DNA from: Leptolyngbyaceae cyanobacterium | GTDB taxonomy: Bacteria > Cyanobacteriota > Cyanobacteriia > Phormidesmidales > Phormidesmidaceae | Assembly: GCA_965263355.1 (NCBI GenBank) | Contig: CBDHHL010000056.1 | Span: 1,312,001-1,376,000, forward strand | Length of the DNA stretch: 64,000 nucleotides | Direction: 5' to 3' | Part shown: positions 1,393-32,040 of the stretch, in pieces | Layout of the letters: each line of letters begins with the position of its first letter | Position numbering within the stretch: the first letter of the stretch is position 1 | Translations under genes and position numbers: made by a program | The notes under the pieces: model-generated | Database searches by the model: none | What the model saw: the letters and a program-made list of their open reading frames with translations, nothing else | What the model was told of the DNA's origin: nothing

Positions 1393-2256
1393 CTACCCTA
1401 AATCTGTTTTGATGGTGTTGATAAGCTCAGGTAATTGTTGCAATGATTGCCTTTTGGGTAGTTGTGCTACAGGCACTGTTTTTAGTAAATGTTGACACTG
1501 CTCAAAATGAGTCCGCATAAAGTCTGGCCCCACCAGCGTATTCATAGTGCGTGAATAGCTTACCAAGCTCATAAAAGCCTGCGCACCTGAGACAGGTTCT
1601 ATCGTTGTTGACGATTCGCCACCCAATAGATACAGCTTCTTTAAAAGGATAGAGCGCTCAAAGAAATGAGTTTCTACTGGATGGATTCGTTTATTTGTAG
1701 AAGCGCCAAAGTCTATGGGAGAGTTAAGATGCTTTGCAGCAGTCACAGCTGAATCAGGCAAAAGCTTTACGAGTGGATAACTGGGAATAGCAAAGCATCC
1801 CTTCGTTTGAATATCAACGGTTAGGACATCATCGGTAATCAGGTCATGGCCCTGGCTATGAAATGCTGTTGCTAGGGTAGATTTTCCCCAACCTGAATGA
1901 CCTAGAAAAGCAATCGCTTCAGATCCAATGCGAACACTACTGCCATGTAAAATCAGATAACCTCTCTGGCGTAGGATAACAGACATGCCAGCAGCTAGTA
2001 CACTAACTCTGAGAAGTTCAGAATCAACATTTGCAACAGGAGAGACAATTAGCTCGCAGCCCTCCTTAAATAAAAAGTTAGCAATATCAGGTAAAGAGCC
2101 ACATAGTTGATTCGTTGTGTTGAGCTGCTCTTCTTTGCTTAAATCTAAAGTCTCGAGTCTTATATTTACATCTGGTTTATCTGATAGAGGTTGAGTATTT
2201 AGCAGTGATATATCACTTGAAATTGTTAGGCCGTATGCACTAAATAGATAAGCCAT
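1393..2256 (-). CDS. HPr kinase/phosphorylase-like kinase (lasso-peptide kinase type)
   Basis: LHGSSV...FLGHSGWGKSTLA (P-loop)...LITDDV motifs; lies between the precursor and the exporter. Confidence 0.85.
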   Translation of the reverse strand: MAYLFSAYGLTISSDISLLNTQPLSDKPDVNIRLETLDLSKEEQLNTTNQLCGSLPDIANFLFKEGCELIVSPVANVDSELLRVSVLAAGMSVILRQRGYLILHGSSVRIGSEAIAFLGHSGWGKSTLATAFHSQGHDLITDDVLTVDIQTKGCFAIPSYPLVKLLPDSAVTAAKHLNSPIDFGASTNKRIHPVETHFFERSILLKKLYLLGGESSTTIEPVSGAQAFMSLVSYSRTMNTLVGPDFMRTHFEQCQHLLKTVPVAQLPKRQSLQQLPELINTIKTDLG

Positions 2257-2375
2257 AACTATTTATTGAGTAAATAGTATCAATTAATACTTTAATCTTC
2301 TAACACCATTTAGAATAATATCTAAATTAAGTAAGCGAGGTTTCTTGCTGTAACTAGCATTACATCCTTTATTAA

Positions 2376-2400
2376 CAGCCCCCGGATTATCCGAGGGCTG
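2376..2400 (-). terminator. GC-rich hairpin immediately downstream of the precursor gene (terminator or stabiliser)
   Basis: Minus-strand CAGCCCTCGGA-TAA-TCCGGGGGCTG stem, 7 nt after the precursor stop; weak U tail. Confidence 0.55.
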
Positions 2401-2407
2401 ATTTGCC

Positions 2408-2578
2408 TTAAAGCGTGGTGTTAACGATTACATCATTAGAGCCAGTTTGATTAAGACCTAATAATGGATTACCATTAACAATAGTTGCATCAGACTGAGG
2501 TGCGCCTCCTGTAGCCTGAGTAAGCTCCTTTGCATTCCCAAAAGAGTTAAGCTTGGGTGCCTTGTATGCTTTCTTCAT
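2408..2578 (-). CDS. Lasso peptide precursor (A), 56 aa: MKKAYKAPKLNSFGNAKELTQ-ATGGAPQSDATIVNGNPLLGLNQTGSNDVIVNTTL
   Basis: Hand translated (below the ORF-track cutoff). GGAG RBS upstream; leader has YxxPxL (YKAPKL), Gly and Thr at -2; core Ala1 and Asp9; adjacent to the cyclase. Confidence 0.92.
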   Translation of the reverse strand: MKKAYKAPKLNSFGNAKELTQATGGAPQSDATIVNGNPLLGLNQTGSNDVIVNTTL

Positions 2579-2708: not shown

Positions 2709-4736
2709 TCATCCAGTCTCCTTAGATTCAATAAAAGAGAACCAAATTGCCATTGTCATCGCAGACCAGATAATGCCGCTATCTTTTTCAGAAAGCTCTT
2801 GATTGCTCACAAAAAGCCTGCTGAGCTTTAGAAAGAAACTATAATTAATATAGTTGCTGATTAATGCTTCAGAATCAGAGAGTAGTTTTTCTAATCTAGT
2901 CTTATCAAATTTATTTAAAGTTCCATGAAATGCCTGTGCTGGAGTTTTTTTCCAATGACGCCATTGGATTTCGTGGGGTAATATATTTTCCATGGCTCGT
3001 CTTAAGATTACCCTTGACCAACCTCTATAAAGCTTCTGCTGAGATGGAACAGCAAGACAAAACTCTACTAATCTTTTATCTAAAAATGGATAGCGAGTTT
3101 CAATTGAGAAGGCGTAGCTCATCAGATCCATTATTTCTAAAGGGATTATAAAGAGACCTCCTGAAATTTTTTCCCATTGTCTATATCGAACAACTTGAGG
3201 TCCATCATGCGTAGTTTGTGGCGCTGATGTAGATCTTTTATTTTTTATGAGATCCCAGAAATCTTCTCTAATCAGAGATTGTGATTTATCTTTATCTATT
3301 TCTTTCCTCTGTCTTACCCAGTTATCTCTGCAGAATATCGCAAATTCTTTAAGCAATCCTGGTATCAATCCCTTTAAACAATAATCAACCACCAGTTGAG
3401 CTTTAGAAATGCATAACATGGGAGCAAGGTTATTTATAGCTCTAGCAATTAAAATAATCTTGCGTTGTTCTACTAGTTTTTCTAGTTGAGGTAATCCATG
3501 CTGTTTAGCTAGCAAAGAAAGCGGATAATTAGTCTTCTCACTTAGTTGATTAGCCTCTTGGACAAAAAGGTGCCATTGATTTTGACAGGCAATTTCTGTC
3601 AACCTCATGATTCCATGGGAAACGATGGTATCACCGTCAAACCCATTCAAAAGAATACGAACATCGGTTTGCTTCGCCATTTTATTGATGCCCCACATTA
3701 AATATCCATTGCCAATGGTGGGTTCTTCAACAGACTTAAACATTTCTACGCAGTTTGTCAGTGGTCCTGAGCGATCAGCATGGATGTAGTGGGGGATAAA
3801 ATCGTCATGATTGAGCACAAGGTCAATATATTCACGCTCATCAGACTCAGGAAAGTCATCAAAAATGTTAGAAAACGTATGTAGTTCTTGTTTTCCATGT
3901 TTCTGTAATAGGTTGCGAGCGGTGCAGGCAATAGATGAGGAGTCTAAGCCGCCACTCAGGTGGGAACCAATGGGAAACGCACTACGTAACCGACAATACA
4001 CGGCCTCTGTAAACAGCTTTTTGAAAGTTTTGGCGTAGTCTTCGTCAGATTCTAAGCAAATTTCACGGGTGGGGTCTAATGCCCAATATTTTTGAGGTTT
4101 GGAATATCCTTGAGCTGTGACGATTAGGCTGCTAGCAGGGGGTAAACGCCAAATATCTTGATACGAGGTGATCTCTTTGTCGTCTAGGTGACCTGTGAGA
4201 TAGTCTGCAATTCTTGCTTCGTTGATTTTGCAAGGAATACTTGATAGTCGTATTAATGCTTTAATTTCTGAAGCAAAAAGAAATCGGTGGTCAGATTTAT
4301 AGTAGTAAAAAGGTTTGACTCCAAAATGATCGCGGGCACAAAATAGCTGCTGTCCATCCCAAATTGAAAAGGCGAAGTCTCCAAGTAAATGATCAGGACA
4401 ATCTGTGCCCCATTTTTCATAGGCTGCCAAAATAAATTCGCTATCGGCAATCTTCTCTAATGGTCGATTGGGTAACGTTAGTACTCTAGCTAGCTCATCC
4501 CGGTTGTCAATACGTGCTTCAGCAGTGATCGATAAATTACCCTTTACCAAAGGGAGCCGTTCATTGAGTGATTCCGGGGTTGTCCAGAGCATACGGTGGC
4601 CCATACCGACGGAGCCGTCATACCAGATATCAGAGCTATCAGGACCACGATGGGCTAAAATTTCAACCATTTGATGTAGCTCATTGGCGTCTATTAGCTT
4701 CTGATTTAGATGGTATATACCGACAATACCACTCAT
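2709..4736 (-). CDS. Lasso peptide cyclase (C), asparagine-synthetase-like
   Basis: MSGIVG start (Ser instead of the catalytic Cys of AsnB), HRGPD, RDHFGVKPFYY, SHLSGGLDSS ATP motif, ETRYPFLD; overlaps B2. Confidence 0.92.
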   Translation of the reverse strand: MSGIVGIYHLNQKLIDANELHQMVEILAHRGPDSSDIWYDGSVGMGHRMLWTTPESLNERLPLVKGNLSITAEARIDNRDELARVLTLPNRPLEKIADSEFILAAYEKWGTDCPDHLLGDFAFSIWDGQQLFCARDHFGVKPFYYYKSDHRFLFASEIKALIRLSSIPCKINEARIADYLTGHLDDKEITSYQDIWRLPPASSLIVTAQGYSKPQKYWALDPTREICLESDEDYAKTFKKLFTEAVYCRLRSAFPIGSHLSGGLDSSSIACTARNLLQKHGKQELHTFSNIFDDFPESDEREYIDLVLNHDDFIPHYIHADRSGPLTNCVEMFKSVEEPTIGNGYLMWGINKMAKQTDVRILLNGFDGDTIVSHGIMRLTEIACQNQWHLFVQEANQLSEKTNYPLSLLAKQHGLPQLEKLVEQRKIILIARAINNLAPMLCISKAQLVVDYCLKGLIPGLLKEFAIFCRDNWVRQRKEIDKDKSQSLIREDFWDLIKNKRSTSAPQTTHDGPQVVRYRQWEKISGGLFIIPLEIMDLMSYAFSIETRYPFLDKRLVEFCLAVPSQQKLYRGWSRVILRRAMENILPHEIQWRHWKKTPAQAFHGTLNKFDKTRLEKLLSDSEALISNYINYSFFLKLSRLFVSNQELSEKDSGIIWSAMTMAIWFSFIESKETG

Positions 4737-5182
4737 CGTTTGACTCCTATTGCAGATAGTGGTTTAAATCGATTCAAATCCTTTAACCAGCCAATGATGA
4801 CCTGGTTTTGATATTCGATCCAGGCATGGGCTTCTAAGTCATTTGAATCACTTTTGGCAACACCAATATGTAACTGATGGTCATAGCCATATCGATTGAG
4901 CAGGAGTTGAGCTGTTAGTGCCTTTACCAAACATTTAGCGCCTCCGGGAGTGTAGTGGCTGCTAAGGGTAACGGCCCATATAATAAATCTCAAAGAGACT
5001 GACTCATGCTCACAGGTCCACACAGAAGTAATCTGTGCTAATTGATGTCTAACTGTATTGAAAGAAAATAGCCACAGGGCAAGACGCAAACTGTTAATCA
5101 GCAAACAAGCGTAGCAAATTACCTTGCGCTCATGCCATGACAAGCTCCATAGCTTAGATAGACGTCTCATCACTGACCTCAA
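4733..5182 (-). CDS. Lasso peptide leader peptidase (B2, transglutaminase-like)
   Basis: AKCLVKAL (Cys), IGVAK and EAHAWIE (His/acidic) motifs; lies between B1 and C. The start may be a few codons downstream. Confidence 0.9.
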   Translation of the reverse strand: MRSVMRRLSKLWSLSWHERKVICYACLLINSLRLALWLFSFNTVRHQLAQITSVWTCEHESVSLRFIIWAVTLSSHYTPGGAKCLVKALTAQLLLNRYGYDHQLHIGVAKSDSNDLEAHAWIEYQNQVIIGWLKDLNRFKPLSAIGVKR

Positions 5183-5462
5183 TCAGACAAGCTGCTTTCA
5201 TATCTTCAAGAATCCGTGTAAGGTCTTGTTTGCAGATGTCGGGTTCTACATCATATTCTGCAACTAATTTTTGATATATATCGTCAAAGGAACAAGGTTG
5301 CTGAATGAGTTCCCAGATACGTGCTCCTACTTCATTCAGGCCATAGTAAATACCTGAAGTCAAATTTAATATGATTGCTTCTCCCCCTAACTCAGATGCA
5401 ATTTGATCTTGAGCTGGTGAAATAGTCGCAATTGATGAAATATCTCCAATCTGTAAAGACAT
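5154..5462 (-). CDS. PqqD-family RiPP recognition element (lasso B1)
   Basis: ELGGEAIILNLTSGIYYGLNEVGARIWELI...AEYDV, a typical RRE; overlaps B2. Confidence 0.92.
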   Translation of the reverse strand: MSLQIGDISSIATISPAQDQIASELGGEAIILNLTSGIYYGLNEVGARIWELIQQPCSFDDIYQKLVAEYDVEPDICKQDLTRILEDMKAACLIEVSDETSI

Positions 5463-5661
5463 GGCTGATTAAGTATAAGAAAGGTTTAGTAATCTTGCTC
5501 TGTTGCTATACAATCTCTACGTAGTGCCATGGTGCTCAGCATAGACTGATTAGCCTAGTTATTTTCTCCAAAGAAGAAGTTCTATATCTGAAAAAAATAT
5601 TGATTTTGGCATCAACTTCATCAAAAAAAACTAACTTTTTACTTATATTTTGCAGTTTTTT

Positions 5662-6999
5662 TTAAGAGGCTTGCTTGAGGCATAGCTCATGCCAGCGCAG
5701 ACCAATTAACACGATACTGGTTAATGCAAAGCCAGGTTCTTCCATCAGAGTAAAAATGAAACCATTAACTAAAAAGTTCAGTACTAAGAATCGAGATACA
5801 TCATCTCTACAGGTTTTTCTCCAGGTTATGAACCATAAGGCGATATAACTAATCAAACCTAAAAATCCTAAATCTCCCCAGATGCCAGCCCAACCCCATA
5901 ACGGTGAGAAAAAGCTAGAGTCTAGGTAATGCCCTTGCCAGGCTTCCCATACTGCCTCACTAGCTGGATGGATTGTTGCGCCTAGTGACCCAACCAAGGA
6001 CCAATAATCTTTAAGCATCCAACCGCCAATGCGACCAATGGTATGTCCAGGACCTAAGCCCAGTAGCCAGTGGAAAGCAGAGGTATAGTAGGTAGGAATA
6101 ATTCTTAAAGGTTCAGTTTTCAAGAGGGTAGCATCACCATTAGGACCGTAAATCTCAGGGCGAATCCAAGTTTGATAAGCATGAAAAAGTTCTACATTAT
6201 AAATGCACCAGTAGAATGCATAACCGATTAAAAGTGCTGCAATGATATATTGAAAGGCGACTCTAAGGTCGGTAATCTTACTAAGGATCAGACATCCCCA
6301 AGCCAGAATCGCTACAAAAAGTACTTGTTTAGCATCTGCAAATAAGATTTGGCTTAGGACTGCGCCTAGTACAGAAATACGTACCCAAAGTGGTACCGTT
6401 TTGGCACTAACGTAGTAATACAGGCCAAATACTAAAGACGCACTAGCACCGACTACATGGCCGCCGGAGGATAAGTAAAAGACACCCTGAACATTGTCTT
6501 CAAGGGTCATGCGGGTATGTCTGAGCAGCCCCGTTTCCAAGCCAACTTTTTGGCTCAGTGCTAATCCAATATGAATAGCTCCAAAGCCAAGAATCCACTT
6601 TTTGAAACGGCTGAGAGATTCTGTTGTGAATGGAATAGAAATTATCGCTGTTAAAAAGATAAAGGGTTCTGAAATAATCATGAGCCCAAGAAAGACGTTA
6701 ACTAGCCCTGCATTATTTAGTAACGCACTGGCGGTTGCGATCGCAAACAATCCCATTAATCCACTAATCAATGCCTTCACAATAGTCAGCTGCTGTCGGT
6801 TTTGTCGTCGACTGCTAAACACAACCAAACTACAGGCAACAGGTGCCACCATAAAATGAACAAAATTTATTGGAGCCGGAGCCCCAAGTGACTGAAGAAT
6901 TCTTGGAAAAAAGGCAGCTGCAAATGCAATTATTAACAAGCGTGAGCTTGAAATAAAGCCTGCTTCTGCTTTGGAACGAGGGAGAGATTGAGTCTGCAT
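5662..6999 (-). CDS. Polytopic membrane protein, probable Wzy polymerase / O-antigen-ligase-like
   Basis: About 12 hydrophobic segments, a large periplasmic loop with LLGLGPG and a GDLGFLG segment; last gene of the GT arm. Confidence 0.6.
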   Translation of the reverse strand: MQTQSLPRSKAEAGFISSSRLLIIAFAAAFFPRILQSLGAPAPINFVHFMVAPVACSLVVFSSRRQNRQQLTIVKALISGLMGLFAIATASALLNNAGLVNVFLGLMIISEPFIFLTAIISIPFTTESLSRFKKWILGFGAIHIGLALSQKVGLETGLLRHTRMTLEDNVQGVFYLSSGGHVVGASASLVFGLYYYVSAKTVPLWVRISVLGAVLSQILFADAKQVLFVAILAWGCLILSKITDLRVAFQYIIAALLIGYAFYWCIYNVELFHAYQTWIRPEIYGPNGDATLLKTEPLRIIPTYYTSAFHWLLGLGPGHTIGRIGGWMLKDYWSLVGSLGATIHPASEAVWEAWQGHYLDSSFFSPLWGWAGIWGDLGFLGLISYIALWFITWRKTCRDDVSRFLVLNFLVNGFIFTLMEEPGFALTSIVLIGLRWHELCLKQAS

Positions 7000-8198
7000 T
7001 ATGGCAATATGGCCGCTGATGTTTGGGCAGATAAAGAAACTGGTAACAAGTTAGAATAGATAGATACCAGTTGCTTATAATTTGCTGTGGCTGTATAGTT
7101 CGCTTCAAACTCGGCACGGGCATTCCGCCGCATCTGTGCACATGCATCAGGCTGATTTAACATCCAAGTGACTTGACGTGCTAAATCACTCGAGTCGCCT
7201 GGGTTGAAATGTAAACCGGTATAGCCAGATTTCACAATTTCTGTAATGGCACCGATTTTAGAGGCAATCACAGGAGTGCCTGTTGCAAATGCTTCTACAG
7301 CTACACGACCAAACGTTTCGTACCATTTAGAAGGAAATATCAAAAACTTGGCTTCCCCCATCAGCTGATGTACTTCAGCCATAGGCCGACGGCCTAACCA
7401 TTCTATGTGTGATTGTTGTTGAGCTGCTTCAGTTACCAATGTAGACAGAGGGCCATCACCGACAACTTTTAGTGGAAAGGATACGTTTAACTGCCGCCAT
7501 GCAGCCAGTAGAGTATCTAAGCCTTTTTCCACTGATAAGCGACCTACAAAAAGGGCGTAATTACCTTTGCCATTACCTACACTTGGTTCTGGAGCAACAA
7601 AGTTTGGTTTGACCACAATTTTGTTGGCAGATAGACCTCCTTCAATAAATTTTTGACGTGCAAACTCTGTCAATGCAATATAGCGATCGACTTTACTATG
7701 CCAGGTATTTATGGCTCTATGGGCTGACAGCATAGCTGCCACTCCTGCACTGGCGATGCGATTTTCTCGATAACAGCCGTGCATAATGCCTGGGTAGGGA
7801 ATCGGCTTGCCGACACATGATTCACACACTTGGCCTTGCCGAAAAAATAGCCCATTAGGACACACCAAACGATAGTTATGCAGGGTTTGGACTACAGGAA
7901 TTCCTTCCGCCTTGGCTGCGTAATAAATAGAAGGGGAGATAAGGGGAAAGAAGTTTTGGACATGCACAATATCGTAGTGATTTTGCGAAAGGCTTTGACG
8001 AATGGTCTGATACGTTTTTTTCGACCAAACAGTCTGCGCTGCTAGCGTTAGTTTAGTAGCCTGAGAAATACTGTCGTTGTTTTCTTCGTAGAGGTCTACA
8101 TGGTGCCCATGCTGGCGCAACAGTTCCACCTCGGCTTCGTAGCATTCTTCTTCGCCACCTCGAATTTGATAGCGGTTGTGAACCCCTAGGATACGCAT
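6999..8198 (-). CDS. Glycosyltransferase family 4
   Basis: MRILGVHNRYQIRGGEE start (ATG 8198), FVGRLSVEKG, YETFGRVAVEAFATGTPVI. Confidence 0.9.
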   Translation of the reverse strand: MRILGVHNRYQIRGGEEECYEAEVELLRQHGHHVDLYEENNDSISQATKLTLAAQTVWSKKTYQTIRQSLSQNHYDIVHVQNFFPLISPSIYYAAKAEGIPVVQTLHNYRLVCPNGLFFRQGQVCESCVGKPIPYPGIMHGCYRENRIASAGVAAMLSAHRAINTWHSKVDRYIALTEFARQKFIEGGLSANKIVVKPNFVAPEPSVGNGKGNYALFVGRLSVEKGLDTLLAAWRQLNVSFPLKVVGDGPLSTLVTEAAQQQSHIEWLGRRPMAEVHQLMGEAKFLIFPSKWYETFGRVAVEAFATGTPVIASKIGAITEIVKSGYTGLHFNPGDSSDLARQVTWMLNQPDACAQMRRNARAEFEANYTATANYKQLVSIYSNLLPVSLSAQTSAAILP

Positions 8199-8714
8199 GT
8201 GCAATTTAGTCCAAGCTTTCTTCAAATCTACACAATCTCGCTCAAAAGTCAGGGCAGTTTATGAGATATATTCTAAACACCTGAAATGTTGCCATCCAGA
8301 CCTTTCAAGGTGTGCTGGCAATAAGTTTTACATTTGGACGAAGCTATCATTTGGTAAGGATTGGGACCTTACTCTGTAATTTAGACTGGCAGGTCAAATG
8401 TACTATTTTTAGATAATTTTGGCTAGTTTAGAGCTACGTAAGAAGTAATACTCCAAAAAAATAAACTATTGCTATCAGGAACCTTGAATTTATAGACAAA
8501 GCTTTCTTAAACTTTGAAAGCTAGGTTTATTTCCTAGAGAGGCTTTTGAAAATTATTAAAAATATTCATTTGACCTTGAAAGGGCTGATGTTGATATCCT
8601 AAAATACCTATACGGAAAAATAAATACTGCACTTATCTGCAGAAACTCTCTAGTAGTAGCTCGTGAGCTACCTACTATGAACAACCCTCAGTTAATACAT
8701 TTCCTTGATACAAG

Positions 8715-9740
8715 CTATGCTTTCTTGCTAGAAGAATAGCCCAATACTTGTGGCACAAACCTTTTCATAAAAATTGAAATACACACAGTAACAAAAGTTG
8801 CTAATGCAGTATAAATTATTGCTATCCCGATCCCCTTATCAAATATTGCTTTGTCTATATTCAATCCATATACTAGGAAGCCTGTAATTAGAGGAATAAC
8901 TAAGAGATGAGTTGAAAAAATAACTAATGTGTTTTCACCGATAATTGAGAGCACAGGATTATGTGGGATTAGTTTAGAAATAAAAGAAAATAAGAAGATT
9001 CCAGAAAATGCAGCTATATAAAACAAAAAATAGTTACCATAATCGCCTATATAAAATTCCACAGTAGAATTCAGAAAAGCTGTGAGTATAAATACCAAAA
9101 GCAATATAACTGCTATATACCAGCGTTGAATCCAAAGTTGATCATTACTATGTAACTGAAAACTAAGAATATAACCTACAGTAAAGAATACGAGTCCAGT
9201 CAAAGAAATTCCTAGGTTCCAAGGTATTGCTATGCCTTCAGGTGCCTTACACATATACCCAAGCACGGATATAGGCAGTAGCATAAAAGTGAATAAGAAC
9301 TTTCTGTTTCGTAATTTAAATAAAAAATAAAAATATATCTGAGTCGTAAATAATGCAGTAAAAAACCAGAGAGCAACATTATTACTAATCCATCCTTCCA
9401 CAGCTGTACCATAAAAAATACCAATCAATGCTTTTGGTGGGTCAAATGATTGAGCCTTAAAGTTTTGAAGAAAAAAAAGCCATATAAAAAAGGTTGATAT
9501 TGAGAAGAAAAGGTAGGGAATTAATAATCTCTGAGCCATCTTCTTTAAAACTAAAATAAATTTTTCCTCATAGAAACTGTCTTTTACTAAAAGCCCTGAA
9601 ACAAAGAAAAATAGTGGTATAAAAAAAGACTTTATATAAACTTCAAACCACATTCCACTAACACGACCTGTATGTACTAAAACTACTAATAAAATCCCAA
9701 TTGCACGTAGATTATCTATCCAATATATCCGCTTACTCAT
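8715..9740 (-). CDS. Acyltransferase-3 family membrane O-acetyltransferase
   Basis: RIYWIDNLRAIGILLVVLVH, FFIPLFFFVSG, RLLIPY, LWFF and GENTLVIF motifs; about 10 TM segments. Confidence 0.88.
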   Translation of the reverse strand: MSKRIYWIDNLRAIGILLVVLVHTGRVSGMWFEVYIKSFFIPLFFFVSGLLVKDSFYEEKFILVLKKMAQRLLIPYLFFSISTFFIWLFFLQNFKAQSFDPPKALIGIFYGTAVEGWISNNVALWFFTALFTTQIYFYFLFKLRNRKFLFTFMLLPISVLGYMCKAPEGIAIPWNLGISLTGLVFFTVGYILSFQLHSNDQLWIQRWYIAVILLLVFILTAFLNSTVEFYIGDYGNYFLFYIAAFSGIFLFSFISKLIPHNPVLSIIGENTLVIFSTHLLVIPLITGFLVYGLNIDKAIFDKGIGIAIIYTALATFVTVCISIFMKRFVPQVLGYSSSKKA

Positions 9741-9875
9741 AGTATTTTAATGGTATAAATTTAGTATAAAAATATCTTTTTTGATAACATCTTGAAAATT
9801 CAACTGTAAATAATAAGCGTGGTTTTTCAGGAGCTACGACAAAAAGAATTCTCTAAACTAAAGAATAAATTGGAG

Positions 9876-11123
9876 CTATAGTTCTAATTTATTCTTTGTA
9901 GCCTCCGATAACTCTTGATATAGCTGACTTAACTCTTGTCCTTTGGCATACCAACTGTACTGCTCTTTTATCAGTCTCTTCCCTGCTTCACCCATGTTTT
10001 TTCGCAAGTTAGAGTCTTTGGCCAAGCGAGCCATAGCATCACTTAAATCTTTGATCACTTGCTCTGGCGCATGGGCAACAATCCTAAATCCAGTTTCATC
10101 AGTAACCTGTGCGGCAGGACCTCCAAGGTCTAAACACAAAATCGGTCGTCCCGCTGCCATGCCTTCCAAACAAACCCAGCCACCAGAGTCATGTAGGCTA
10201 GGATGTACTAGCACATGGCTTTGGGCAAGTTTTTCTAATGTTTGCTCACGAGGCAGTCGTCCCCAAAATTTAACTTTGTTGGCAACGCCTAACTCTTTGG
10301 CCAATGCCTCAAAGTTTTCCATTTCAGGGCCGTCACCTAAAATCCAATATTCGGCATTAAGTAAGTTAGCCTTAGCAAAGGCCTTAATCCCTAAGTAAAA
10401 TCCTTTCCAATGCAGCAGACGTCCCATGCTGATAAAGCGCAAAGGGCCATCCTCTGGCAATGGACAGTGGTTTAGTTTTTCTATTTCTTCTAGGGCTAGG
10501 CCAGACTCTGATGCTATTTGTACCTGAGTAGCTCCCATTTTACTAAGTTGCTTTGCTGTATCTTGAGTAGTTGCACGTACCACAGCACTACGCTGTGCTG
10601 TTAACCGAGTAAAGGGATCAATTTCACCGACTTTATGAGCTAGCCAGCGCAGTTTTTCATACCGCTTTGCCTTGGTACTAAAGTCTTTGAAAAAGGGTTT
10701 AGGTGCTTGTTCACCACCGCCTACAGGTCCCCATACAAAAGGAATGGGCAATAGAGAGAGCCAGCTGGGTGTTGAATAACGGACAAAGGTAACATGGTGA
10801 GCCACGTCAAAGTTAATCTCTTTATGTAAGCGACGAGCCACAAAATAGGCCTGAATTTGCCAAAGATAATAGTGAATTTGCATTGCACCAGATTGCCCCA
10901 GACGCATGCTATCTTGCCAGAAAGGTAGAGTAAAATAGACAAATTTCAGATTTGGAGTTGGATTGCGAGCAAGTTCTGCTTCGATGGCGTCTTTACTTTC
11001 ATCGGGACGAGTCAAAGCCCAAACCTGATGATGTCTAGCCACTTCACGAACAATGTTCCAGCCAACACCTGGTTCGGATCCTTTGCCAGGTTCACATGAA
11101 TACGCTGATATAAGAACTTTCAT
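9876..11123 (-). CDS. Glycosyltransferase family 4
   Basis: MKVLISAYSCEPGKGSEPGVGW, GRLLHWKG, SLHDSGGWVCLEGMAAGRP. Confidence 0.9.
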   Translation of the reverse strand: MKVLISAYSCEPGKGSEPGVGWNIVREVARHHQVWALTRPDESKDAIEAELARNPTPNLKFVYFTLPFWQDSMRLGQSGAMQIHYYLWQIQAYFVARRLHKEINFDVAHHVTFVRYSTPSWLSLLPIPFVWGPVGGGEQAPKPFFKDFSTKAKRYEKLRWLAHKVGEIDPFTRLTAQRSAVVRATTQDTAKQLSKMGATQVQIASESGLALEEIEKLNHCPLPEDGPLRFISMGRLLHWKGFYLGIKAFAKANLLNAEYWILGDGPEMENFEALAKELGVANKVKFWGRLPREQTLEKLAQSHVLVHPSLHDSGGWVCLEGMAAGRPILCLDLGGPAAQVTDETGFRIVAHAPEQVIKDLSDAMARLAKDSNLRKNMGEAGKRLIKEQYSWYAKGQELSQLYQELSEATKNKLEL

Positions 11124-11207
11124 GAGTACTGCTTCCAAAATATTCAGCTATAGAGATAGCCACTTAGATTGATACTGCTGACTACAAATTTATAGAACAA
11201 GAGGAGA

Positions 11208-12077: not shown

Positions 12078-12138
12078 CTAAAATAGAATCAAAACTTTTA
12101 AACCGCATTAAAATCAAAATAATGAATATTTAGATTTT

Positions 12139-19258: not shown

Positions 19259-19301
19259 CTCTAACCTATAAAAATAATAATTATATTTTTATAGGTTAGA
19301 G
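19259..19301. repeat. Perfect 18-bp inverted repeat with a 7-nt loop
   Basis: CTCTAACCTATAAAAATA (19259-19276) pairs with TATTTTTATAGGTTAGAG (19284-19301). Confidence 0.85.
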
Positions 19302-19369
19302 ACTTAGTGTTGCATGACCTTTTTATGGCTTCTCTTATTTCCCACTAAAGTTTAGATTTTGGCTCTATA

Positions 19370-19510: not shown

Positions 19511-19527
19511 TATTGAGCCTAGATTTT

Positions 19528-20970: not shown

Positions 20971-21199
20971 GAATCTGTAATTGCTAGTTGATATTTTTAG
21001 TAAAGAGCATCAATAGATTTTTCCAAAAAGAGATTTCAACTTAATCTGAAAAATCTTAGATAAGTTAGGATTCAGAGAATAAGGAGTAGAGAGGGTTGGA
21101 TTCTGATTTCTACCCTCTGAATCCTATCCTTAGAAAAACACTCCACTTTAATTTGCTGTTCTTAGCAAAATCCTGAAAATACTGGAAATAGAAAAGGTT

Positions 21200-22159: not shown

Positions 22160-23173
22160 TCAGGATATTTCAGTATTTCTGATTCTTATATGAGTTTTAT
22201 CTGTGAGGTGAGGTTTCAACTGTTCAATTAAATCTGCTGTTCTAATTTTGACGCCTCGATTATGTAGATGATACTGAGAATCATAAAATAAGGAAATATC
22301 ATACATAGCCTGCTCTGGTGTCCCGATGATGGGAACTTCAAGATGTGCATAAAAATCTGCGATACTTTTGAAAAGGGATTGAGTATTGGGTTGTTGATAA
22401 ATCTCAAAACGAATTGTATTTGGCCATGTGGCTAATACTTCAATATCATTATCACGACAATATTTGATAAATTTCTCGATACTACTTAACCCTTTACTCT
22501 CAGATACGTAATGACTTTTTATCAAAGATTGCCAAGGCGGTAATTTGTCGCGCTTCTCAATTTGCTCTGCCGTCATGGTTTCTTCAAACATAATCGTTGC
22601 ATCACCATATTCATTCATACGGGAAAATTGTTCTTCTAAATCGATGTCCTCATTTTTGTCTCTAGACTCAATCCCTTCTACTAGTCTTAGAAAGCTTACA
22701 CCTCCCATGAATTTCATCTGAGTGTCCCACCCAGATTGTTTAAAGTAGGGATAGTCGCGTGCAAATATATAATCTATCGCAGTATTATTCGGCTCTCCAT
22801 TATAGAGGTAGCTCTCATACTCAAGCGGTAGTAGTACAACATCTCCAGGCTTAACCCATTTTTTTGCATTGTAGAAAATATAATCAATTCCTAGAGCAAA
22901 AGCAATACCGCCATTGAAACAGTTGATTTCAATCTCTTCTTCAATTTGCTGACAGCTCAGTCCTTGAAGTGAATTAGAACCAGAAATAAATACTAGTTTA
23001 TTCTGATCCTTAGGCATTTTTTGATATAGCTCATGCTTAACCAAAAGCGTCTTATGGCGAATTTCTGAACTTTTGGTTGGTGCACCAACCTGAGCATATA
23101 CTACACCTACATAAGTAAGACATAGAATAATTAACCCAGCAATAACACCTTGAAAGTATTTTCCGTATTTCAT
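22160..23173 (-). CDS. Membrane-anchored SGNH/DltD/AlgJ-like protein, partner of the MBOAT
   Basis: N-terminal TM helix, FISGSNS nucleophile-like motif, C-terminal FYDSQYHL (Asp/His); directly follows the MBOAT. Confidence 0.6.
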   Translation of the reverse strand: MKYGKYFQGVIAGLIILCLTYVGVVYAQVGAPTKSSEIRHKTLLVKHELYQKMPKDQNKLVFISGSNSLQGLSCQQIEEEIEINCFNGGIAFALGIDYIFYNAKKWVKPGDVVLLPLEYESYLYNGEPNNTAIDYIFARDYPYFKQSGWDTQMKFMGGVSFLRLVEGIESRDKNEDIDLEEQFSRMNEYGDATIMFEETMTAEQIEKRDKLPPWQSLIKSHYVSESKGLSSIEKFIKYCRDNDIEVLATWPNTIRFEIYQQPNTQSLFKSIADFYAHLEVPIIGTPEQAMYDISLFYDSQYHLHNRGVKIRTADLIEQLKPHLTDKTHIRIRNTEIS

Positions 23174-23175
23174 GC

Positions 23176-24681
23176 TTAGAAGTTAAAGTATAGAAACTCA
23201 CTACTAGGTGCCCGAAGAGCACACTTGACTGTCAAAAAAAGCAGTCCAGAAAGCGATAGACCAAATATGAAATTAGGCCGCCAATTTAAAGCTTTCCAAG
23301 TATTATCGGCTTTTTCAGATAGCTCGGTAATTGTGGGCTTGTAGTTCTGCATTAGCTGACTTATATTAGGCAATATTAAAACCCACAAGCATAGACCTAC
23401 AATCTGTATCAAGGTCTGTGGATAAACCTCTGAGAGTGATACTTGAAAGCCATTCAGACCTAGCATCGATTTCCATATATTCACTGCACTAGAAACTGTT
23501 TCCGCTCGAAATATTACCCAGCTAAAGACTACTAGTCCAAACGTTAGTAACTGTGCAGGTAATTTACTTATCCAATTTCCTTCTTTTGTGCTTTTATCAA
23601 ACAAATGTTTGGTTAACTTTCTCCAGACATGGTTTATGCTCAGGTAGAATCCATGAATACCCCCCCAAAGCACAAAAGTCCATCCAGCTCCGTGCCATAA
23701 TCCTCCAAGCAACATCGTAATCATCAAATTGCTAATTTGGCGTACCTGCCCATGACGATTGCCGCCTAGGGGAATATATAAATAGTCACGTAAGAAATTA
23801 GACAGTGTGATGTGCCAGCGACGCCAAAAGTCTGAAATATCAGTTGCTTTGTAAGGAGAATTAAAGTTGAGAGGCAATACAATTCCAAACATTCTGGCAA
23901 TACCCAATGCCATCTCTGAATAGCCAGAAAAGTCAAAGTACAGCTGAAAACTATAAGCAAGTGCTCCTATCCATGCCTGGCAAAGCGTTAGCGAATCTCC
24001 CCCTAATGAAGATGTAAACATCGTATTTGCAATAGGAGCCATATTGTCTGCAATAACAATTTTCTTGTAGAGTCCAGCACAAAAAATTGTTACGCCAACA
24101 GTAAAATCTTCGATATTAAACTGATATATTTTCTTATTCCTAAACTGATGCATCATCTCCTTGTGATGCACAATCGGTCCTGCAATCAGCTGAGGAAAGA
24201 AAGTCACAAATAGACAATAATCGAGAAAACTATATTCTTTAGTCTCACCACGATAGGCATCTACTAAATATGAAATTTGCTGAAATGTAAAAAAGGAAAT
24301 TGCTAAAGGTAATAGGATTTCAGGGTTATGTAAATCTAACCCTAGTAAAGCATTGAGTGATTCTATAAAGAAGTTAGCGTATTTAAAGTAACCTAGAAGA
24401 GCAATATTGATTATAATTCCACCTATTAGATAAGTTTGCTTTATTCGTATTTTTTTAGATGGTTGAATATTGCTAATATGATTTCCTAGAAAAAAATTAA
24501 ATCCGATAGAGCCTAAAATTAAAAATAAATAGTTTGGATTCCACCAGCTATAAAAAAATAAAGATGCTGCTGTAATTAATATGATAGATATCTTACGCAG
24601 TCCTATTAAGTTAGAACTAAAAAATAACAGTAGCGTTACAGGTAGAAATACAAATATAAATTCAGTAGAATTAAAGAGCAT
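23176..24681 (-). CDS. MBOAT O-acyltransferase (AlgI/DltB/PatA-like)
   Basis: MLFNS start, LPLAISFFTFQQISY, QLYFDFSGYS, FWRRWHITLS, GGLWHGAGW, EFLYFNF end. Confidence 0.93.
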   Translation of the reverse strand: MLFNSTEFIFVFLPVTLLLFFSSNLIGLRKISIILITAASLFFYSWWNPNYLFLILGSIGFNFFLGNHISNIQPSKKIRIKQTYLIGGIIINIALLGYFKYANFFIESLNALLGLDLHNPEILLPLAISFFTFQQISYLVDAYRGETKEYSFLDYCLFVTFFPQLIAGPIVHHKEMMHQFRNKKIYQFNIEDFTVGVTIFCAGLYKKIVIADNMAPIANTMFTSSLGGDSLTLCQAWIGALAYSFQLYFDFSGYSEMALGIARMFGIVLPLNFNSPYKATDISDFWRRWHITLSNFLRDYLYIPLGGNRHGQVRQISNLMITMLLGGLWHGAGWTFVLWGGIHGFYLSINHVWRKLTKHLFDKSTKEGNWISKLPAQLLTFGLVVFSWVIFRAETVSSAVNIWKSMLGLNGFQVSLSEVYPQTLIQIVGLCLWVLILPNISQLMQNYKPTITELSEKADNTWKALNWRPNFIFGLSLSGLLFLTVKCALRAPSSEFLYFNF

Positions 24682-24937
24682 GACTTAAATTCAATTTCTC
24701 AGTCCTATTGACTTTTCGATTAACCACTTTCTATGATAAAGAGACTTTAAAGACTTTTGCATAGAAAAAGAGTTTTTTGGGAAGTCCCTTCAAATTAAAA
24801 CTAAACTGTGATTTAAGCAATCTCCACAGTTTTCTATTACTGCCTAAGCAGCTTGCTGAAAATTTATGACTATACATACTCAACAAGCTGCTAAAAGGTT
24901 TCCGAATTAAGCTGCTATAACAAGTTAATCAACAAGA

Positions 24938-25807
24938 CTACCTTGTTATTCGCTGCTTCAGAGTAACTTCGGGATTAATCCAGCCAAATCTGGGCTCTAA
25001 ACCCAGCTTAATTTTCACCAGCTGTTTAGCTGCTAACAGAAGAAACAATGGACTCGTTTTTGCATAGCGTTTCCATAACCTCCGAGGCTCTTGTATTAAA
25101 CGATACAACCACTCAAGTCCACTCTTCTGAATCCAAACAGGAGCCCACTTCTTTTCACCAGCAAAGATCGGAAATACGCCACCTAGACCAACCATTACTG
25201 CCTGGACTCGGTCCTTATGCTCATGCATCCACCACTCTTGCTTAGGGCAACCTAATGACACCAGCACCAACCCAGCACCACTATCATTGATCTCCTGCAC
25301 TAACGCCTCATCCTCATCCCGAGTTAACGGCCTAAACGGTGGCGATACCATTCCCACCACGTTTAAAGAAGGAAATTCTACCTTCAACCGTTGTTCCATG
25401 CCATATAACACTCCAGGGGTGGAGCCTAAGAAAAAGACACTAATATCTTGCTGAGCCGCTTTCTTACACAAACTCAACAAAATATCCATCCCCGCTACCC
25501 GATCCTGCTTGCGCCTTCTGAGACGACTAGTCACCCATACCAGCGGCATACCATCCGGCGTCAGCATATCCGCCTGGTACAAAACCCTAGCAAACCCCTC
25601 ATGGGCCTTTGCCTCAATTAACATATGCACATTGGCCACACACACGACCTTACTAAGTCGCTGATGTGCCCAGCCCAGCATAGTATCAATTTGCCTAGAA
25701 AACGGTTCTGCGGTTACAGGAAAACTTATTACACTTTGCGTTTCCAGGGTTTGATTATTCTCCTGCCAAAGGTCTATAAGGCTGGACTTAGTAGTCGAAT
25801 ACAGCAT
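24938..25807 (-). CDS. WecB/TagA/CpsF family glycosyltransferase
   Basis: VANVHML, PDGMPLVW, RVAGMD, SPPFRP, LGCPKQE, GLEWLYRLIQEPRRLWKRY. Confidence 0.92.
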   Translation of the reverse strand: MLYSTTKSSLIDLWQENNQTLETQSVISFPVTAEPFSRQIDTMLGWAHQRLSKVVCVANVHMLIEAKAHEGFARVLYQADMLTPDGMPLVWVTSRLRRRKQDRVAGMDILLSLCKKAAQQDISVFFLGSTPGVLYGMEQRLKVEFPSLNVVGMVSPPFRPLTRDEDEALVQEINDSGAGLVLVSLGCPKQEWWMHEHKDRVQAVMVGLGGVFPIFAGEKKWAPVWIQKSGLEWLYRLIQEPRRLWKRYAKTSPLFLLLAAKQLVKIKLGLEPRFGWINPEVTLKQRITR

Positions 25808-28384: not shown

Positions 28385-28465
28385 ATGGATAACTAATGGA
28401 TTCTTTTCCAAAAATATCCTCAGATTTTTTTTTAACTACTGACCTTTATTATTTATCTTCTACCC

Positions 28466-30649
28466 ATGAGAGCCGATACACTTCCCGCTTCCTCCGCTAG
28501 GATAGTCCCAGAGCGCATACTGACAGAAGACGAAGGTGGTCTCAATGTGGGTGCCCTACTTAAAACTCTGCAGCGTAAATGGTGGTTAATCACAGGGGTA
28601 ACTGTAGCTACCATGGGCCTAGCTGCCGTTAGAGTATTAACTGAAACGCCTATATACAACGGTGGTTTTGAAATCTTAGTTCAGGCTCAAAGTACTGAGA
28701 CTGAGGTGATTTCCAACATTCCAGAAACGTTTACTGGACAAGATCGAGAACAATTGCAATCGACCCTGGTTGATGGCGATTTACTCAAAATCTTGACGGG
28801 GCCTAAAGTTTTGCAACCTGTCGTCGAAGGAATTAAAGATAGATATCCCGACTATTGTCCATCGACATTGCCGGGGGTAGCTCTACCTGAGTCTGGTAGC
28901 AATCAGTTGAGTGTTAACTATGATCCTTGTTATCAGGTTTTAGTAAAACGGCTACGTGTGGCACCGTTGGGTCAAGGTTCAGATATCATTCGGGTGACAT
29001 TGTTAGATCCTGATCCACAAACGGTGCAGGTGATTTTAGATTTAGTATCCCAGGCCTATCTCACCTTTAGTCTAGAGTCCAAACAGGCGGATATTCGTCG
29101 TGCCATTGAGTTTGTTGAGCAAAAGTTACCCGATCTGACTAAAAAAGTAGAATCTCTGCAGGATCAGCTGCAAGCCCTACGGTTAAATTTCAATATTATT
29201 GATCCTGATTCCCGTGGGTCCCAGTTGGCAGGACAAGTAGGGGCATTTTCTAAACAACAGCTTGATCTGCAAATTGCCTTAGAACAAAATCGGGCCAACT
29301 ATGAGAACCTGCGGGCTCAGTTAAGTGGCCCTCAAGAACAGGCATCTTCGTCTGCTTTAGCGCAAAACCCTAGATACCAGACATTGCTTAATAGTTTGCT
29401 AGAGCTAGATGCCCAAATTGCAGAGGCATCGACTCTATATCTTGATAGTAGTCCTGATATGGAGGTACTAAAAGAACAACGCCAGAAATTACTACTGCTC
29501 CTGGAGCAACAGGGGGAACAATCTCAACGGGATCTGGCGAGTCAAATGCAGGAACTGGAAGCCCAAGAGCGTTCTTTAAATCGGACCTTGCAGGGGTTAA
29601 GTTCAGAGGTAGATGAACTCTCTGGCATTTCGCGGGAATATTTGGAAATTCAGCGAGAGCTAGGGATTGCGACGGAAAACCTGAATCAATTTTTGGCCAA
29701 GCAAGCGGCGTTAGAAATTGACGCGGCCCAGCGAGAAATTCCTTGGGAAATTGTTACGCCTCCTACAGAATTTCCCGTACCGCCAACCAGTCTGTTGCAG
29801 AATTTGCTATTAGGGGGAGTACTTGGACTGCTATTGGGTTCGGCACTTGCGCTGCTACTAGATAAGTCAGCCGGTGTGCTTTATTCAGACAAAGACATCC
29901 AGCGGGCAATGATGCCGTTTCCCATTTTGGGTAAAATCCCTGTTCCCCAGATTGTTACCCAAAATGTTTTTGCACCCAGAAAATCCTTACAATTGGCTAC
30001 GGATAAATCTTCTTCTGGAAGAGAAAAAACTGACAGTTCAACTGTCTACACTGAAGATCCGTTTATGGAGGCATTTCGCTCACTCTATACCAACCTCAGA
30101 TTGAGTAGTGTCGATCACCCCCTAAAATCGGTAGTGGTCAGTTCTGTTATGGAAGGGGAAGGGAAATCTATTGCCGCCATCCATTTGGCTGAGGCAGCCA
30201 CACTAATGGGACAGCGGGTACTGCTGGTGGATACAAACCTGCGGGCTCCTAAGATTCACAGCTATCTGAAATTACCCAATGATGCGGGTTTAACGGACCT
30301 TGCCTTGAGTGATCCCAGTGCTATCACTAAAAGTACGTTTTTACATGAGCCGATTGATGGCCTTAAGGTGCTCTGTGCCGGTACCAAGGGCCATGATGCT
30401 GGCCATATCTTGACAACTAAGCGGGTGCAGCGACTGATTCAACAACTTAAAACTAGATTTGACTTAGTGGTGTTTGATGCACCATCTTTGCTAGGCCAGT
30501 CAGACGCGTTCTTAATTGCGGAACAAGCAGATGGCATGTTGATTGTTGCCCGTCCCGGTCAACTTAAGCAAAGCCTGGTTGACCAGGCCATGGACCAAAT
30601 TACCATCGCTAATGCCAATGTCTTTGGCGTCGCTGTCCGAGAAAACTAA
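28466..30649 (+). CDS. wzc: Polysaccharide co-polymerase / tyrosine-kinase-like (Wzc/GumC)
   Basis: Two TM helices flank a coiled-coil periplasmic domain; EAFRSLYTNL, Walker A SVMEGEGKS, VLLVDTNLR, VVFDAP. Confidence 0.9.
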   Translation: MRADTLPASSARIVPERILTEDEGGLNVGALLKTLQRKWWLITGVTVATMGLAAVRVLTETPIYNGGFEILVQAQSTETEVISNIPETFTGQDREQLQSTLVDGDLLKILTGPKVLQPVVEGIKDRYPDYCPSTLPGVALPESGSNQLSVNYDPCYQVLVKRLRVAPLGQGSDIIRVTLLDPDPQTVQVILDLVSQAYLTFSLESKQADIRRAIEFVEQKLPDLTKKVESLQDQLQALRLNFNIIDPDSRGSQLAGQVGAFSKQQLDLQIALEQNRANYENLRAQLSGPQEQASSSALAQNPRYQTLLNSLLELDAQIAEASTLYLDSSPDMEVLKEQRQKLLLLLEQQGEQSQRDLASQMQELEAQERSLNRTLQGLSSEVDELSGISREYLEIQRELGIATENLNQFLAKQAALEIDAAQREIPWEIVTPPTEFPVPPTSLLQNLLLGGVLGLLLGSALALLLDKSAGVLYSDKDIQRAMMPFPILGKIPVPQIVTQNVFAPRKSLQLATDKSSSGREKTDSSTVYTEDPFMEAFRSLYTNLRLSSVDHPLKSVVVSSVMEGEGKSIAAIHLAEAATLMGQRVLLVDTNLRAPKIHSYLKLPNDAGLTDLALSDPSAITKSTFLHEPIDGLKVLCAGTKGHDAGHILTTKRVQRLIQQLKTRFDLVVFDAPSLLGQSDAFLIAEQADGMLIVARPGQLKQSLVDQAMDQITIANANVFGVAVREN

Positions 30650-30975
30650 GAGATTTACAGAAAACGACTTCAGTGCCTGTTAAAGAGATTAATTTTGAGC
30701 TGGTTTATGTGAGCTAGGCCACAATTGAAGGTGCTCATAGAGCCTAAGCCTCTATGTGTTGTTTTATCAATATCTCACACTTTCTTGATTTAAGTTCATA
30801 GCCTTTAAAGATAACGTGATGATTATGACAAATAAACAACTATTTATTTGGTTCCCAACGATGGAGTAAGTATAAGTATGCAGTCCTCTTAGGAATAAAT
30901 GCATTCCTTGAACACCATATATTTGGCTATTAGAGCTATCTATTAACACGTTTATTGATTAAGGAAGTTGAAAAT

Positions 30976-32040
30976 ATGATTCAGACCAAACGTGCACTAA
31001 TTACAGGAATCACAGGTCAAGATGGATCTTACCTTGCAGAATTTTTATTAGAAAAAGGCTACGAGGTCCACGGAATTATTCGCCGTACCTCAACGTTCAA
31101 CACAGATCGTATTGATCATATTTATATTGACCCCCACAGCGATAATGCTCGTCTATTTCTCCACTACGGTGACCTCAATGATGGCACCATGTTGCGGCGC
31201 ATTCTAGAGCAAGTTAAGCCCGATGAAGTCTATAATCTTGGGGCTCAGTCTCACGTACGTGTCAGCTTTGATTCTCCAGAATATACCGTTGATACGGTAG
31301 CCATGGGAGCCCTACGCCTTATGGAAGCTATTCGTGACTATCAGCAACGTACGGATGCAGAAGTGCGTTTCTATCAAGCAGGCTCTTCCGAAATGTTCGG
31401 TAAGGTTCAAGAAATCCCCCAGAAAGAAACGACTCCCTTTTATCCCCGCAGTCCTTATGCCTGCGCTAAGGTCTATGCCCACTGGCAGACTGTTAACTAT
31501 CGTGAGTCCTATAATATGTTTGCCTGCAATGGCATACTGTTTAACCATGAGTCCCCCCGTCGTGGTGAAACCTTTGTAACTCGAAAAATCACTCGTGCTG
31601 TGGCCCGGATTGTGGCTGGTCGTCAGCAGACTCTTTACCTTGGTAATTTGGATTCTAAGCGGGACTGGGGCTATGCGAAAGACTATGTCCGTGCTATGTG
31701 GCTAATGCTACAGCAGGATGAGCCTGATGATTATGTTGTTGCTACAGGTGAAACCCATACTATCAAAGAGTTTTTAGATATTGCCTTTGCTTATGTCAAC
31801 CTTGACTGGCATGATTACGTCAAATTTGATCCTCGCTATCTGCGTCCCGCTGAAGTCGATATTCTGATCGGTGATCCGACATATACCAAGGAAAAATTGG
31901 GCTGGAAACCTTCCATCAACTTTCCAGGTTTAGTTAAGCTCATGGTAGATGGAGATTTAGAAGCTATCGGCCTAGACCCGGTCAGTCAGCAGTCTGATGC
32001 AGCTACCGTACGGACTGCTATTGCTGGTGTGATGTCCTAG
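30976..32040 (+). CDS. gmd: GDP-mannose 4,6-dehydratase
   Basis: [58 protein letters not shown]. Confidence 0.97.

Follow-up and report, generated by a model that had tools for sequence, protein, structure and literature searches.

What is a set of lasso peptide genes doing at the tail of a polysaccharide locus? The question is raised by a 64,000-nucleotide stretch of DNA from a Leptolyngbyaceae cyanobacterium (contig CBDHHL010000056.1, positions 1,312,001 to 1,376,000; hereafter the window), in which a lasso gene set follows, on the same strand, a run of genes of the Wzx/Wzy type. Our analysis gives about an even chance to the hypothesis that the lasso peptide works alongside the surface coat, as a distinct molecule under shared regulation, with its genes kept in a conserved slot where the polysaccharide locus ends. 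The peptide is probably not chemically joined to the sugar coat. The locus is of a kind that was described recently, in a cyanobacterial variant, and what it adds is the exchange of cassettes in a fixed slot.

The minus strand carries 22 consecutive open reading frames from 25807 to the left edge of the window. Sixteen of them, from 25807 to 5662, are of polysaccharide type (Pfam, 29 window proteins scanned), and past a gap of 199 bp (5463..5661) there follow genes for an RRE, a B2 peptidase, a cyclase, a precursor, an HprK-like kinase and an ABC transporter. An earlier reading of this DNA from its letters (the sequence-only reading) had placed the lasso genes about 200 bp past a Wzy-like gene in the same orientation, and the measured gap bears this out; the range it gave, 1393..32040, does enclose lasso and polysaccharide genes but leaves out the ABC gene at 3-1358. 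One 5500-base contig of a public run, which may be the source sample of the window, covers 2481-7980 with zero differences, and since this contig spans the lasso/Wzy-like junction, the junction is no join error of the window.

The lasso set is complete and of the kinase type, and its cyclase, B2 and precursor all pass their NCBIfam cut-offs. Reading along the minus strand, the RRE (B1, PqqD-like; 5154..5462; PF05402 70.4 bits, NF033536 78.4 against a cut-off of 80) resembles the solved lasso RREs 9x90 and 5v1u, and the B2 leader peptidase (4733..5182; NF033537 97.6 bits, cut-off 33) has its Cys and His motifs. The AsnB-like cyclase (2709..4736; NF033535 848.4 bits, cut-off 525) has an intact ATP-binding motif, with Ser in place of the glutaminase Cys1. 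We considered and rejected an exopolysaccharide (EPS) amidotransferase or AsnB as the identity of this protein, given a TIGR03108 score of 218.5 against a cut-off of 816.9 and the Ser at the N-terminal catalytic Cys position. The precursor of 56 amino acids (2408..2578; NF033528, lasso_cyano, 37.9 bits, cut-off 33) is followed by the HprK-like kinase (1393..2256), predicted to phosphorylate it, which keeps Walker A, His and Asp-Asp motifs despite a PF07475 score (E 6.3e-6, 26.3 bits) under the cut-off of 33.3. Last comes the MsbA-like ABC exporter (3..1358; PF00664 and PF00005), which runs off the left edge.

The precursor consists of a YxxPxL leader with Thr at position -2 and a 34-residue core with Gly at position 3. 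A macrolactam ring between Ala1 and Asp9 is predicted, Asp9 aligning with homologues. The core contains Ser8 and Ser26, the latter in a GSxD motif, and ends in Leu rather than Ser. Among 74 distinct precursors, Asp or Glu stands at position 8 or 9 in 62 and a C-terminal Ser occurs in 17, while the Thr at -2 is present in all 74, a figure partly built into the search pattern. Across 53 cyanobacterial lasso loci the kinase gene is found in 40. A PF14907 nucleotidyltransferase is found in 23; tblastn gave no match to it in the 64 kb, but relatives have this gene after the ABC gene, which in the window runs off the edge. A cyclase-based metagenome scan found no relative.

Is the neighbourhood conserved? 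The host family was chosen through the genome (G333) that was the best of 50 for a flanking housekeeping protein (76%), and 120 genomes of that family were searched. They gave 44 B2 matches, of which 41 were covered by 39 fetched loci; eight loci showing less than 12 kb were dropped (two of these had also been missed by BLAST labelling), leaving 31. A locus was scored as having machinery when at least one of the following lay no more than 10 kb away: Wzx, Wza, Wzc, WecG, a priming transferase, the Wzy-like gene. Random 20-kb windows, 20 of them from six family genomes, served as control. On this definition the lasso-polysaccharide linkage is conserved in the host family, which is the check that the sequence-only reading had set for itself: machinery was found at 20 of the 31 lasso loci and in 2 of the 20 random windows (Fisher p 1.3e-4, a value that overstates the evidence because the genomes are related). 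One of the 20 positive loci depends on the Wzc label alone, and next to a priming transferase that label denotes a coiled-coil protein of 390-430 residues without a Pfam match. B2 and the Wzy-like gene occur together in 25 family genomes, and in 11 of these they lie at most 25 kb apart on one contig.

The position of the lasso genes is more constant than their orientation. Sixteen loci contain both lasso genes and a Wzy-like gene, and in every one of them the lasso genes are on the downstream side of the latter; among these loci are members of Nostocales and Oculatellaceae whose Wzy-like proteins are only 37-53% identical to that of the window. Fourteen of the 15 loci other than the window are convergent, and one is co-directional with five intervening genes, which makes the head-to-tail layout of the window the exception. 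Read-through from the Wzy-like gene, as the sequence-only reading would have it, does not therefore hold as a general rule, and a conserved read-through operon starting there was rejected. A milder form of co-expression appears to survive, in which the lasso operon of the relatives follows a priming glycosyltransferase gene: of 16 loci that have this gene (PF02397) beside the lasso genes, 15 carry it upstream of them and on their strand, and in eight of these it is 166-505 bp from the RRE gene. Together with the co-induction reported in Paenibacillus (PMC13381572, discussed below), this arrangement supports a link in expression.

What has changed within the slot is the cassette. Compared with nine family loci, the RRE (58-69% identity), B2 (57-62%) and ABC exporter (61-63%) of the window are well conserved, whereas the cyclase (43-49%) and the kinase (31-38%) are less so; these ranges leave out a tenth family locus, G491, which carries an unrelated cassette. 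The cyclase itself is a mosaic gene. Over its first 110 residues the protein shows 71-76% identity to one clade of the family, and past residue 110 it is no closer to that clade than to Nostocales; a breakpoint lies near that residue. Pairs of genomes tell the same in both directions: G496 and G511 share 42% identity in the Wzy-like protein and 81% in the cyclase, G496 and G482 share 73% and 45%, and G001 and G229 share 82% and 57%. The trees of Wzy-like and cyclase types, both built with FastTree only, disagree, and on the 79-row cyclase tree a position beside the Wzy-like gene requires 10 changes, in keeping with a slot that was occupied repeatedly. From these genome comparisons it would seem that the locus retains its leader-handling genes and its exporter, and that the cyclase body, the peptide and the kinase are replaced in the manner of a serotype cassette. 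The cores found in the slot vary widely and have little in common beyond the ring acid.

The neighbour across the gap, a polytopic protein of 445 residues (5662..6999, minus strand), has no sequence match in Pfam, NCBIfam or the PDB. Wzy_C matched none of its 96 homologues, which also lack any consistent Pfam match, and one Atlas lead has Wzy_C in 15% of one cluster. An AlphaFold2 model built from the 96 homologues reached a pLDDT of 89.8, and its best structural match is WaaL (Foldseek E 1.9e-5, TM 0.52; by VIA, Z 18.2 over 357 aligned residues at rmsd 5.3), followed by RodA and FtsW. The comparison of folds that had been proposed for 5662-6999 thus indicates, at the level of a model, that the protein carries the WaaL/Wzy GT-C fold. 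This fold is common to polymerases, ligases and O-oligosaccharyltransferases. Solved Wzy structures are absent from the fold lists, which does not speak against membership of that family. The GT-C family comprises 1139 homologues among 7999 scored candidates, the nearest named one being that of Leptolyngbya sp. PCC 7375 (76%).

The distribution of this family points to the glycan. The Wzy-like gene is present in 57 of the 120 family genomes and in 27 of 401 genomes of a phylum sample, and 32 of the 57 and 16 of the 27 have no B2 match, although some genomes may be incomplete and an absent match is no proof that the gene is missing. In all 20 stretches fetched from the phylum sample it lies inside a run of glycan genes, with no lasso genes in the stretch. 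It is, moreover, the only GT-C candidate found in a locus that has the Wzx, Wza and Wzc expected of the Wzx/Wzy pathway (PF13440, PF02563, PF02706). The protein is often found apart from lasso genes, its type varies independently of the peptide, and no other polymerase candidate was found in the locus; it therefore most likely polymerises glycan and does not act on the peptide.

Several of our observations weigh against a functional tie between peptide and coat. In the phylum sample, machinery was found near only 6 of 33 B2 loci (p 0.69 against the control; 38 of 41 matches fetched, 33 showing at least 12 kb), so the claim of a conserved linkage stands for the host family and fails across the phylum. 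B2 was used as the marker here because a cyclase census, which counted 14 of 401, scored at most two candidates per genome. A rate so near background implies that most cyanobacterial lasso clusters work without a polysaccharide neighbour. Of the precursors from linked loci, 15 of 28 carry the GSxD tail motif, as do 13 of 46 from unlinked ones, and a peptide motif exclusive to polysaccharide-linked loci was accordingly rejected. Precursor alignment A4 was hand-picked for the GSxD motif. The modelled GT-C fold alone cannot tell a Wzy from a ligase. In addition, the family genomes share ancestry, and the same map could have arisen from a single ancestral insertion with allelic replacement afterwards.

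This last point leads to the hypothesis that the lasso genes are hitch-hikers, which remains a strong rival, though less likely than not. It holds that the locus tail is a recombination hot spot, that an ancestral lasso insertion has since been swapped by homologous recombination, and that the peptide serves a purpose which has nothing to do with the glycan, for example as an ordinary antimicrobial or as a signal. In its favor, the slot also carries other variable cargo (the exosortase CrtC, PTPA-CTERM, lectin-domain and DUF4347 proteins), the region is AT-rich (31-45% GC in 8-25 kb of the window against 40-55% beyond 36 kb), 27 of the 33 phylum loci and 11 of the 31 family loci have no machinery nearby, and the orientation of the lasso genes relative to the Wzy-like gene varies. 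Hitch-hiking does not, however, readily account for a slot filled, in separate orders, by Wzy-like genes and cyclases of different lineages. Nor does it account for the 13 of 35 non-cyanobacterial lasso loci with machinery labels (35 of 68 kept for having at least two lasso accessory genes and at least 12 kb; there is no matched control), for two Acidobacteria loci (L018 and L022) in which the lasso genes are embedded in operons whose Wzy_C genes run the same way, or for the independent report of the link in Bacilli (PMC13381572). Persistence of the slot across cassette swaps, orders and other phyla suggests that selection favours inheriting or expressing the lasso genes together with those of the surface coat, and we would put the case for such selection at about one in two.

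A bolder hypothesis, and the one that the sequence-only reading had leaned towards, joins the peptide covalently to the glycan. The kinase would prime a Ser, the WaaL-fold protein or a route through a PsmN-like nucleotidyltransferase would add a lipid-linked oligosaccharide, and the result would be a protease-proof structure that anchors or caps the sheath polymer. We consider this improbable. It can draw on the fact that the closest solved fold, WaaL, is a ligase, on the priming glycosyltransferase gene directly 5' of the RRE gene in eight family loci, on the PF14907 gene of the 23 cyanobacterial loci, whose homologue PsmN is required for hexosylation of pseudomycoidin (PMC6993621), and on the O-antigen-ligase-TPR proteins near the lasso clusters L015, L018 and L022. 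Against it stand the many genomes in which the Wzy-like gene has no B2 partner and the lack of any coupling between Wzy-like subtype and the subtypes of cyclase, kinase and peptide; the two together make a dedicated peptide-glycan ligase unlikely, and they count against the proposed role of the Wzy-like protein as an oligosaccharyl-transferase for the lasso peptide. The little that slot cores share beyond the ring acid argues in the same direction, as does the failure to find a nucleotidyltransferase, a priming transferase or a GT2 in the 64 kb, although such genes may lie beyond the left edge. A peptide-ligase role would also leave the Wzx/Wzc/Wza locus without an identified polymerase.

In its most developed form the covalent hypothesis would have filamentous cyanobacteria carry an exchangeable lasso cassette in an operon with the priming glycosyltransferase; phosphorylated lasso peptides joined to sheath polysaccharide by a nucleotidyltransferase and the WaaL-fold protein would then form strain-specific peptide-glycan surface tags. 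To this form as a whole we give a small chance. If true, it would make the lasso peptide a structural, serotype-like part of the cell coat. The O-antigen-ligase and TPR proteins mentioned above, of 780-900 residues, were seen near Acidobacteria and Desulfocapsa lasso clusters (L018:16621-19299, L022:18908-21628, L015:3364-5697), and they would be better candidates for an O-oligosaccharyltransferase than the 445-residue protein of the window.

The GT-C gene, taken by itself, admits a further explanation. Instead of polymerising glycan or serving the lasso peptide, the WaaL-fold protein could be a ligase that O-glycosylates PTPA-CTERM surface proteins sorted by an exosortase, with the lasso cluster a co-resident of a wider cell-surface island. 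We find this unlikely; it concerns the GT-C gene only and is compatible with the peptide acting as a separate partner of the coat. Of 19 Wzy-like loci in the family, 13 contain cyanoexosortase C (CrtC), 11 contain HpsJ-like C and nine contain PTPA-CTERM motifs, one relative has a HepA-family ABC transporter in the place of Wzx (NF045513 968 against a cut-off of 725), and PEP-CTERM proteins have been found to tie EPS to the cell surface (bioRxiv 2024.12.02.626408). On the other hand, CrtC occurs in none of the 20 phylum-sample Wzy-like stretches, several of which have Wzc just downstream, and neither CrtC, HpsJ-like C, HepA nor the nucleotidyltransferase was found in the 64 kb of the window. 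CrtC, HpsJ-like C and PTPA-CTERM accompany the Wzy-like gene in the family loci L171, L173, L181, L185, L188-L193, L195 and L196, whether lasso genes are present or not. Large proteins also flank the lasso clusters of some family genomes, either of a lectin/GSDH/PKD or of a beta-helix/laminin-G type (L194:1964-7387, L212:16657-19803, L202:5766-7988, L212:6362-8629).

To call the system undescribed is to overstate, given the literature on Bacilli. Popov et al. 2026 (PMC13381572) describe paeninodin-like lasso/LPP clusters embedded in capsular polysaccharide loci of Bacilli and co-induction of Paenibacillus lasso genes with an eps gene, and speculate on a role in biofilms, an idea left untested there. 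The window shares with these clusters a discrete RRE, B2, cyclase, HprK-like kinase and MsbA-like ABC transporter at a polysaccharide locus. It differs in its cyanobacterial host, in a YxxP instead of a WxxP leader and in that no SpI peptidase was seen, in the fixed slot downstream of one uncharacterised GT-C family with exchange of the cyclase/peptide/kinase cassette, and, in the cyanobacterial relatives, in the CrtC and PTPA-CTERM neighbours. Of the paeninodin-type features the kinase is present, but the C-terminal Ser (PMC10368454) and the WxxP leader and Bacillota host (PMC13381572) are not. In a term search of six supplementary files of PMC13381572, cyanobacteria were mentioned once, as a row of an RRE alignment.

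Other characterised systems resemble the window in part. The pseudomycoidin cluster psmCAKB1B2ND (Zyubko et al. 2019, PMC6993621), in a paper that also mentions a Stanieria cluster with a glycosyltransferase, is of the kinase type as well, and most family relatives of the window carry a PF14907 nucleotidyltransferase like PsmN, which is needed to place a hexose on phosphorylated pseudomycoidin. There, however, the C-terminal residue is phosphorylated and hexosylated, whereas the window has neither a C-terminal Ser nor a nucleotidyltransferase that we could find. The Bsf cluster of Bradymonas sediminis (PMC10368454) is likewise a kinase-type lasso cluster of a Gram-negative host; the phosphorylation of an internal Ser in its product means that a C-terminal Ser is not required. 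The Bsf peptide has Ser3 and Ile at -2, as opposed to Gly3 and Thr at -2 here. IgtG glycosylates a mature lasso peptide on Ser (Sun et al. 2025, PMC11912497) and is a deacetylase/GT2 protein, the sole glycosyltransferase of its cluster; in the window the glycosyltransferases are those of the polysaccharide locus, and no GT2 (PF00535) was matched among the 29 proteins scanned with Pfam. With Wzx/Wzy loci and WaaL (7tpg, 7tpj) the window shares Wzx, Wza, Wzc, GT4 enzymes and a GT-C membrane protein, and it departs from them in that its GT-C protein lacks a match among Pfam and NCBIfam families and a priming phosphoglycosyl transferase was not found in its 64 kb. Glycosyltransferases adjoin 36% of complete rumen lasso clusters (PMC7533575). 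A cyanobacterial lasso cluster is described in PMC9332814, a paper whose covered portions do not mention a polysaccharide link, and the word lasso is absent from the main texts of PMC12267927 and bioRxiv 2024.12.02.626408. We found no account of a cyanobacterial lasso/polysaccharide slot in the searchable literature, which was judged mostly by listings and did not extend to subscription papers.

The preferred hypothesis, of a separate molecule co-regulated with the coat, suggests the following course of events, modelled on characterised pathways. RRE and B2 would bind the leader and cut it after Thr(-2)-Gln(-1), the cyclase would close the ring between Ala1 and Asp9, and the kinase would phosphorylate a Ser, for which Ser26 (of the GSxD motif) or Ser8 are the candidates because the core has no C-terminal Ser. 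The serine-phosphorylated, knotted peptide would leave through its own ABC transporter, while the WaaL-fold neighbour would polymerise glycan. Outside the cell the peptide would have a putative role as a strain-specific signal or guard of the matrix.

How the genes of the window are transcribed is only partly constrained by the sequence. A terminator scan listed no site between 5462 and 5662, in agreement with the earlier claim that a strong terminator is lacking there, but a weak A/U-rich hairpin with a terminal U8 does stand 3' of the Wzy-like stop codon in the 199-bp gap (111-nt region, z -2.21, 3 of 200 shuffles), and weak termination is possible at this point. Within the 20-kb polysaccharide run, intergenic gaps reach 489 bp and two of them hold hairpins of -22.0 and -20.6 kcal/mol (best 45-nt windows, without shuffles). 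With such gaps and hairpins the run need not form one transcript, and a single transcript of 26 kb is neither shown nor required by the data. The gap has no similarity to the regions upstream of the RRE genes of relatives, and a shared promoter element 5' of RRE was rejected. A sigma-70 scan returned 21 sites where 27 were expected. Directly 3' of the precursor gene, on the same strand, lies a strong GC-rich hairpin (2350..2410; -21.8 kcal/mol, z -3.64, 1 of 200 shuffles), which likely stabilises or attenuates the transcript.

The remainder of the locus is that of a surface polysaccharide. From 25807 the minus-strand run opens with a WecG/TagA glycosyltransferase (PF03808), an MBOAT O-acyltransferase (PF03062) and a 337-residue protein (together 22160..25807), continues with an FkbM protein, the Wzx flippase (19528-20970; PF13440, 316 bits) and a second FkbM (18225..22096; PF05050), and proceeds through six GT4 enzymes, a class I methyltransferase, a third FkbM and an acyltransferase-3 (6999..18151, by Pfam) to the 445-residue protein that completes its 16 genes. 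The gene for the 337-residue protein (22160-23173) starts 2 bp downstream of the MBOAT gene; its product has no family match, with Atlas leads to LB_356 and DUF1574 in 11-18% of members, and from its position it is likely a periplasmic acyl-transfer partner of the MBOAT protein. As the sequence-only reading had stated, wza (26847-28343; PF02563), wzc (28466-30649; PF02706, and TIGR01007 at 105.3, just below the cut-off of 108) and gmd (30955-32040; PF16363) diverge from this run, all three on the plus strand. Beyond gmd, a methyltransferase and a sulfotransferase (32687-35650) may belong to the glycan locus; the loci of relatives carry several sulfotransferases. From 36733 to 64000 there are open reading frames whose translations we take to resemble urease accessory, urea ABC transport, ndh and photosystem II genes.

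Other arrangements of lasso-type genes came to light in the surveyed loci. In L113, L114, L117 and L121, an RRE, a GT4, a kinase, a GT2, an ABC transporter and a nucleotidyltransferase surround B2, with an epimerase in two of them; there is no cyclase in the fetched 20 kb, and two tandem precursors have Gly/Ser/Thr-rich cores. By gene content these clusters resemble those of linear glyco-RiPPs, here in cyanobacteria and equipped with glycosyltransferases of their own. Modules that resemble lasso clusters but combine a P450 with a second cyclase gene or cyclase module recur in several cyanobacteria (L216, L217, L126, L021, L137). In Pleurocapsa, a non-heterocystous cyanobacterium, a lasso cluster (L006:3-4280) adjoins HepC (NF045514 above its cut-off), a partial HepA-like ABC transporter and a Wzc block.

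In conclusion, kinase-type lasso peptides are described as having no known biological role, and in the searchable papers their link to capsule loci is described only for Bacilli (PMC13381572). The present locus extends that link to cyanobacteria and adds two points that can be tested, namely that the genes shaping the peptide are exchanged in a fixed slot and that in relatives these genes follow the gene of a priming glycosyltransferase. The uncharacterised GT-C family is a candidate for a cyanobacterial Wzy that Pfam misses. Since cultured cyanobacteria share the slot, a role of the lasso peptide in the formation of sheath or biofilm is open to study by knockout.

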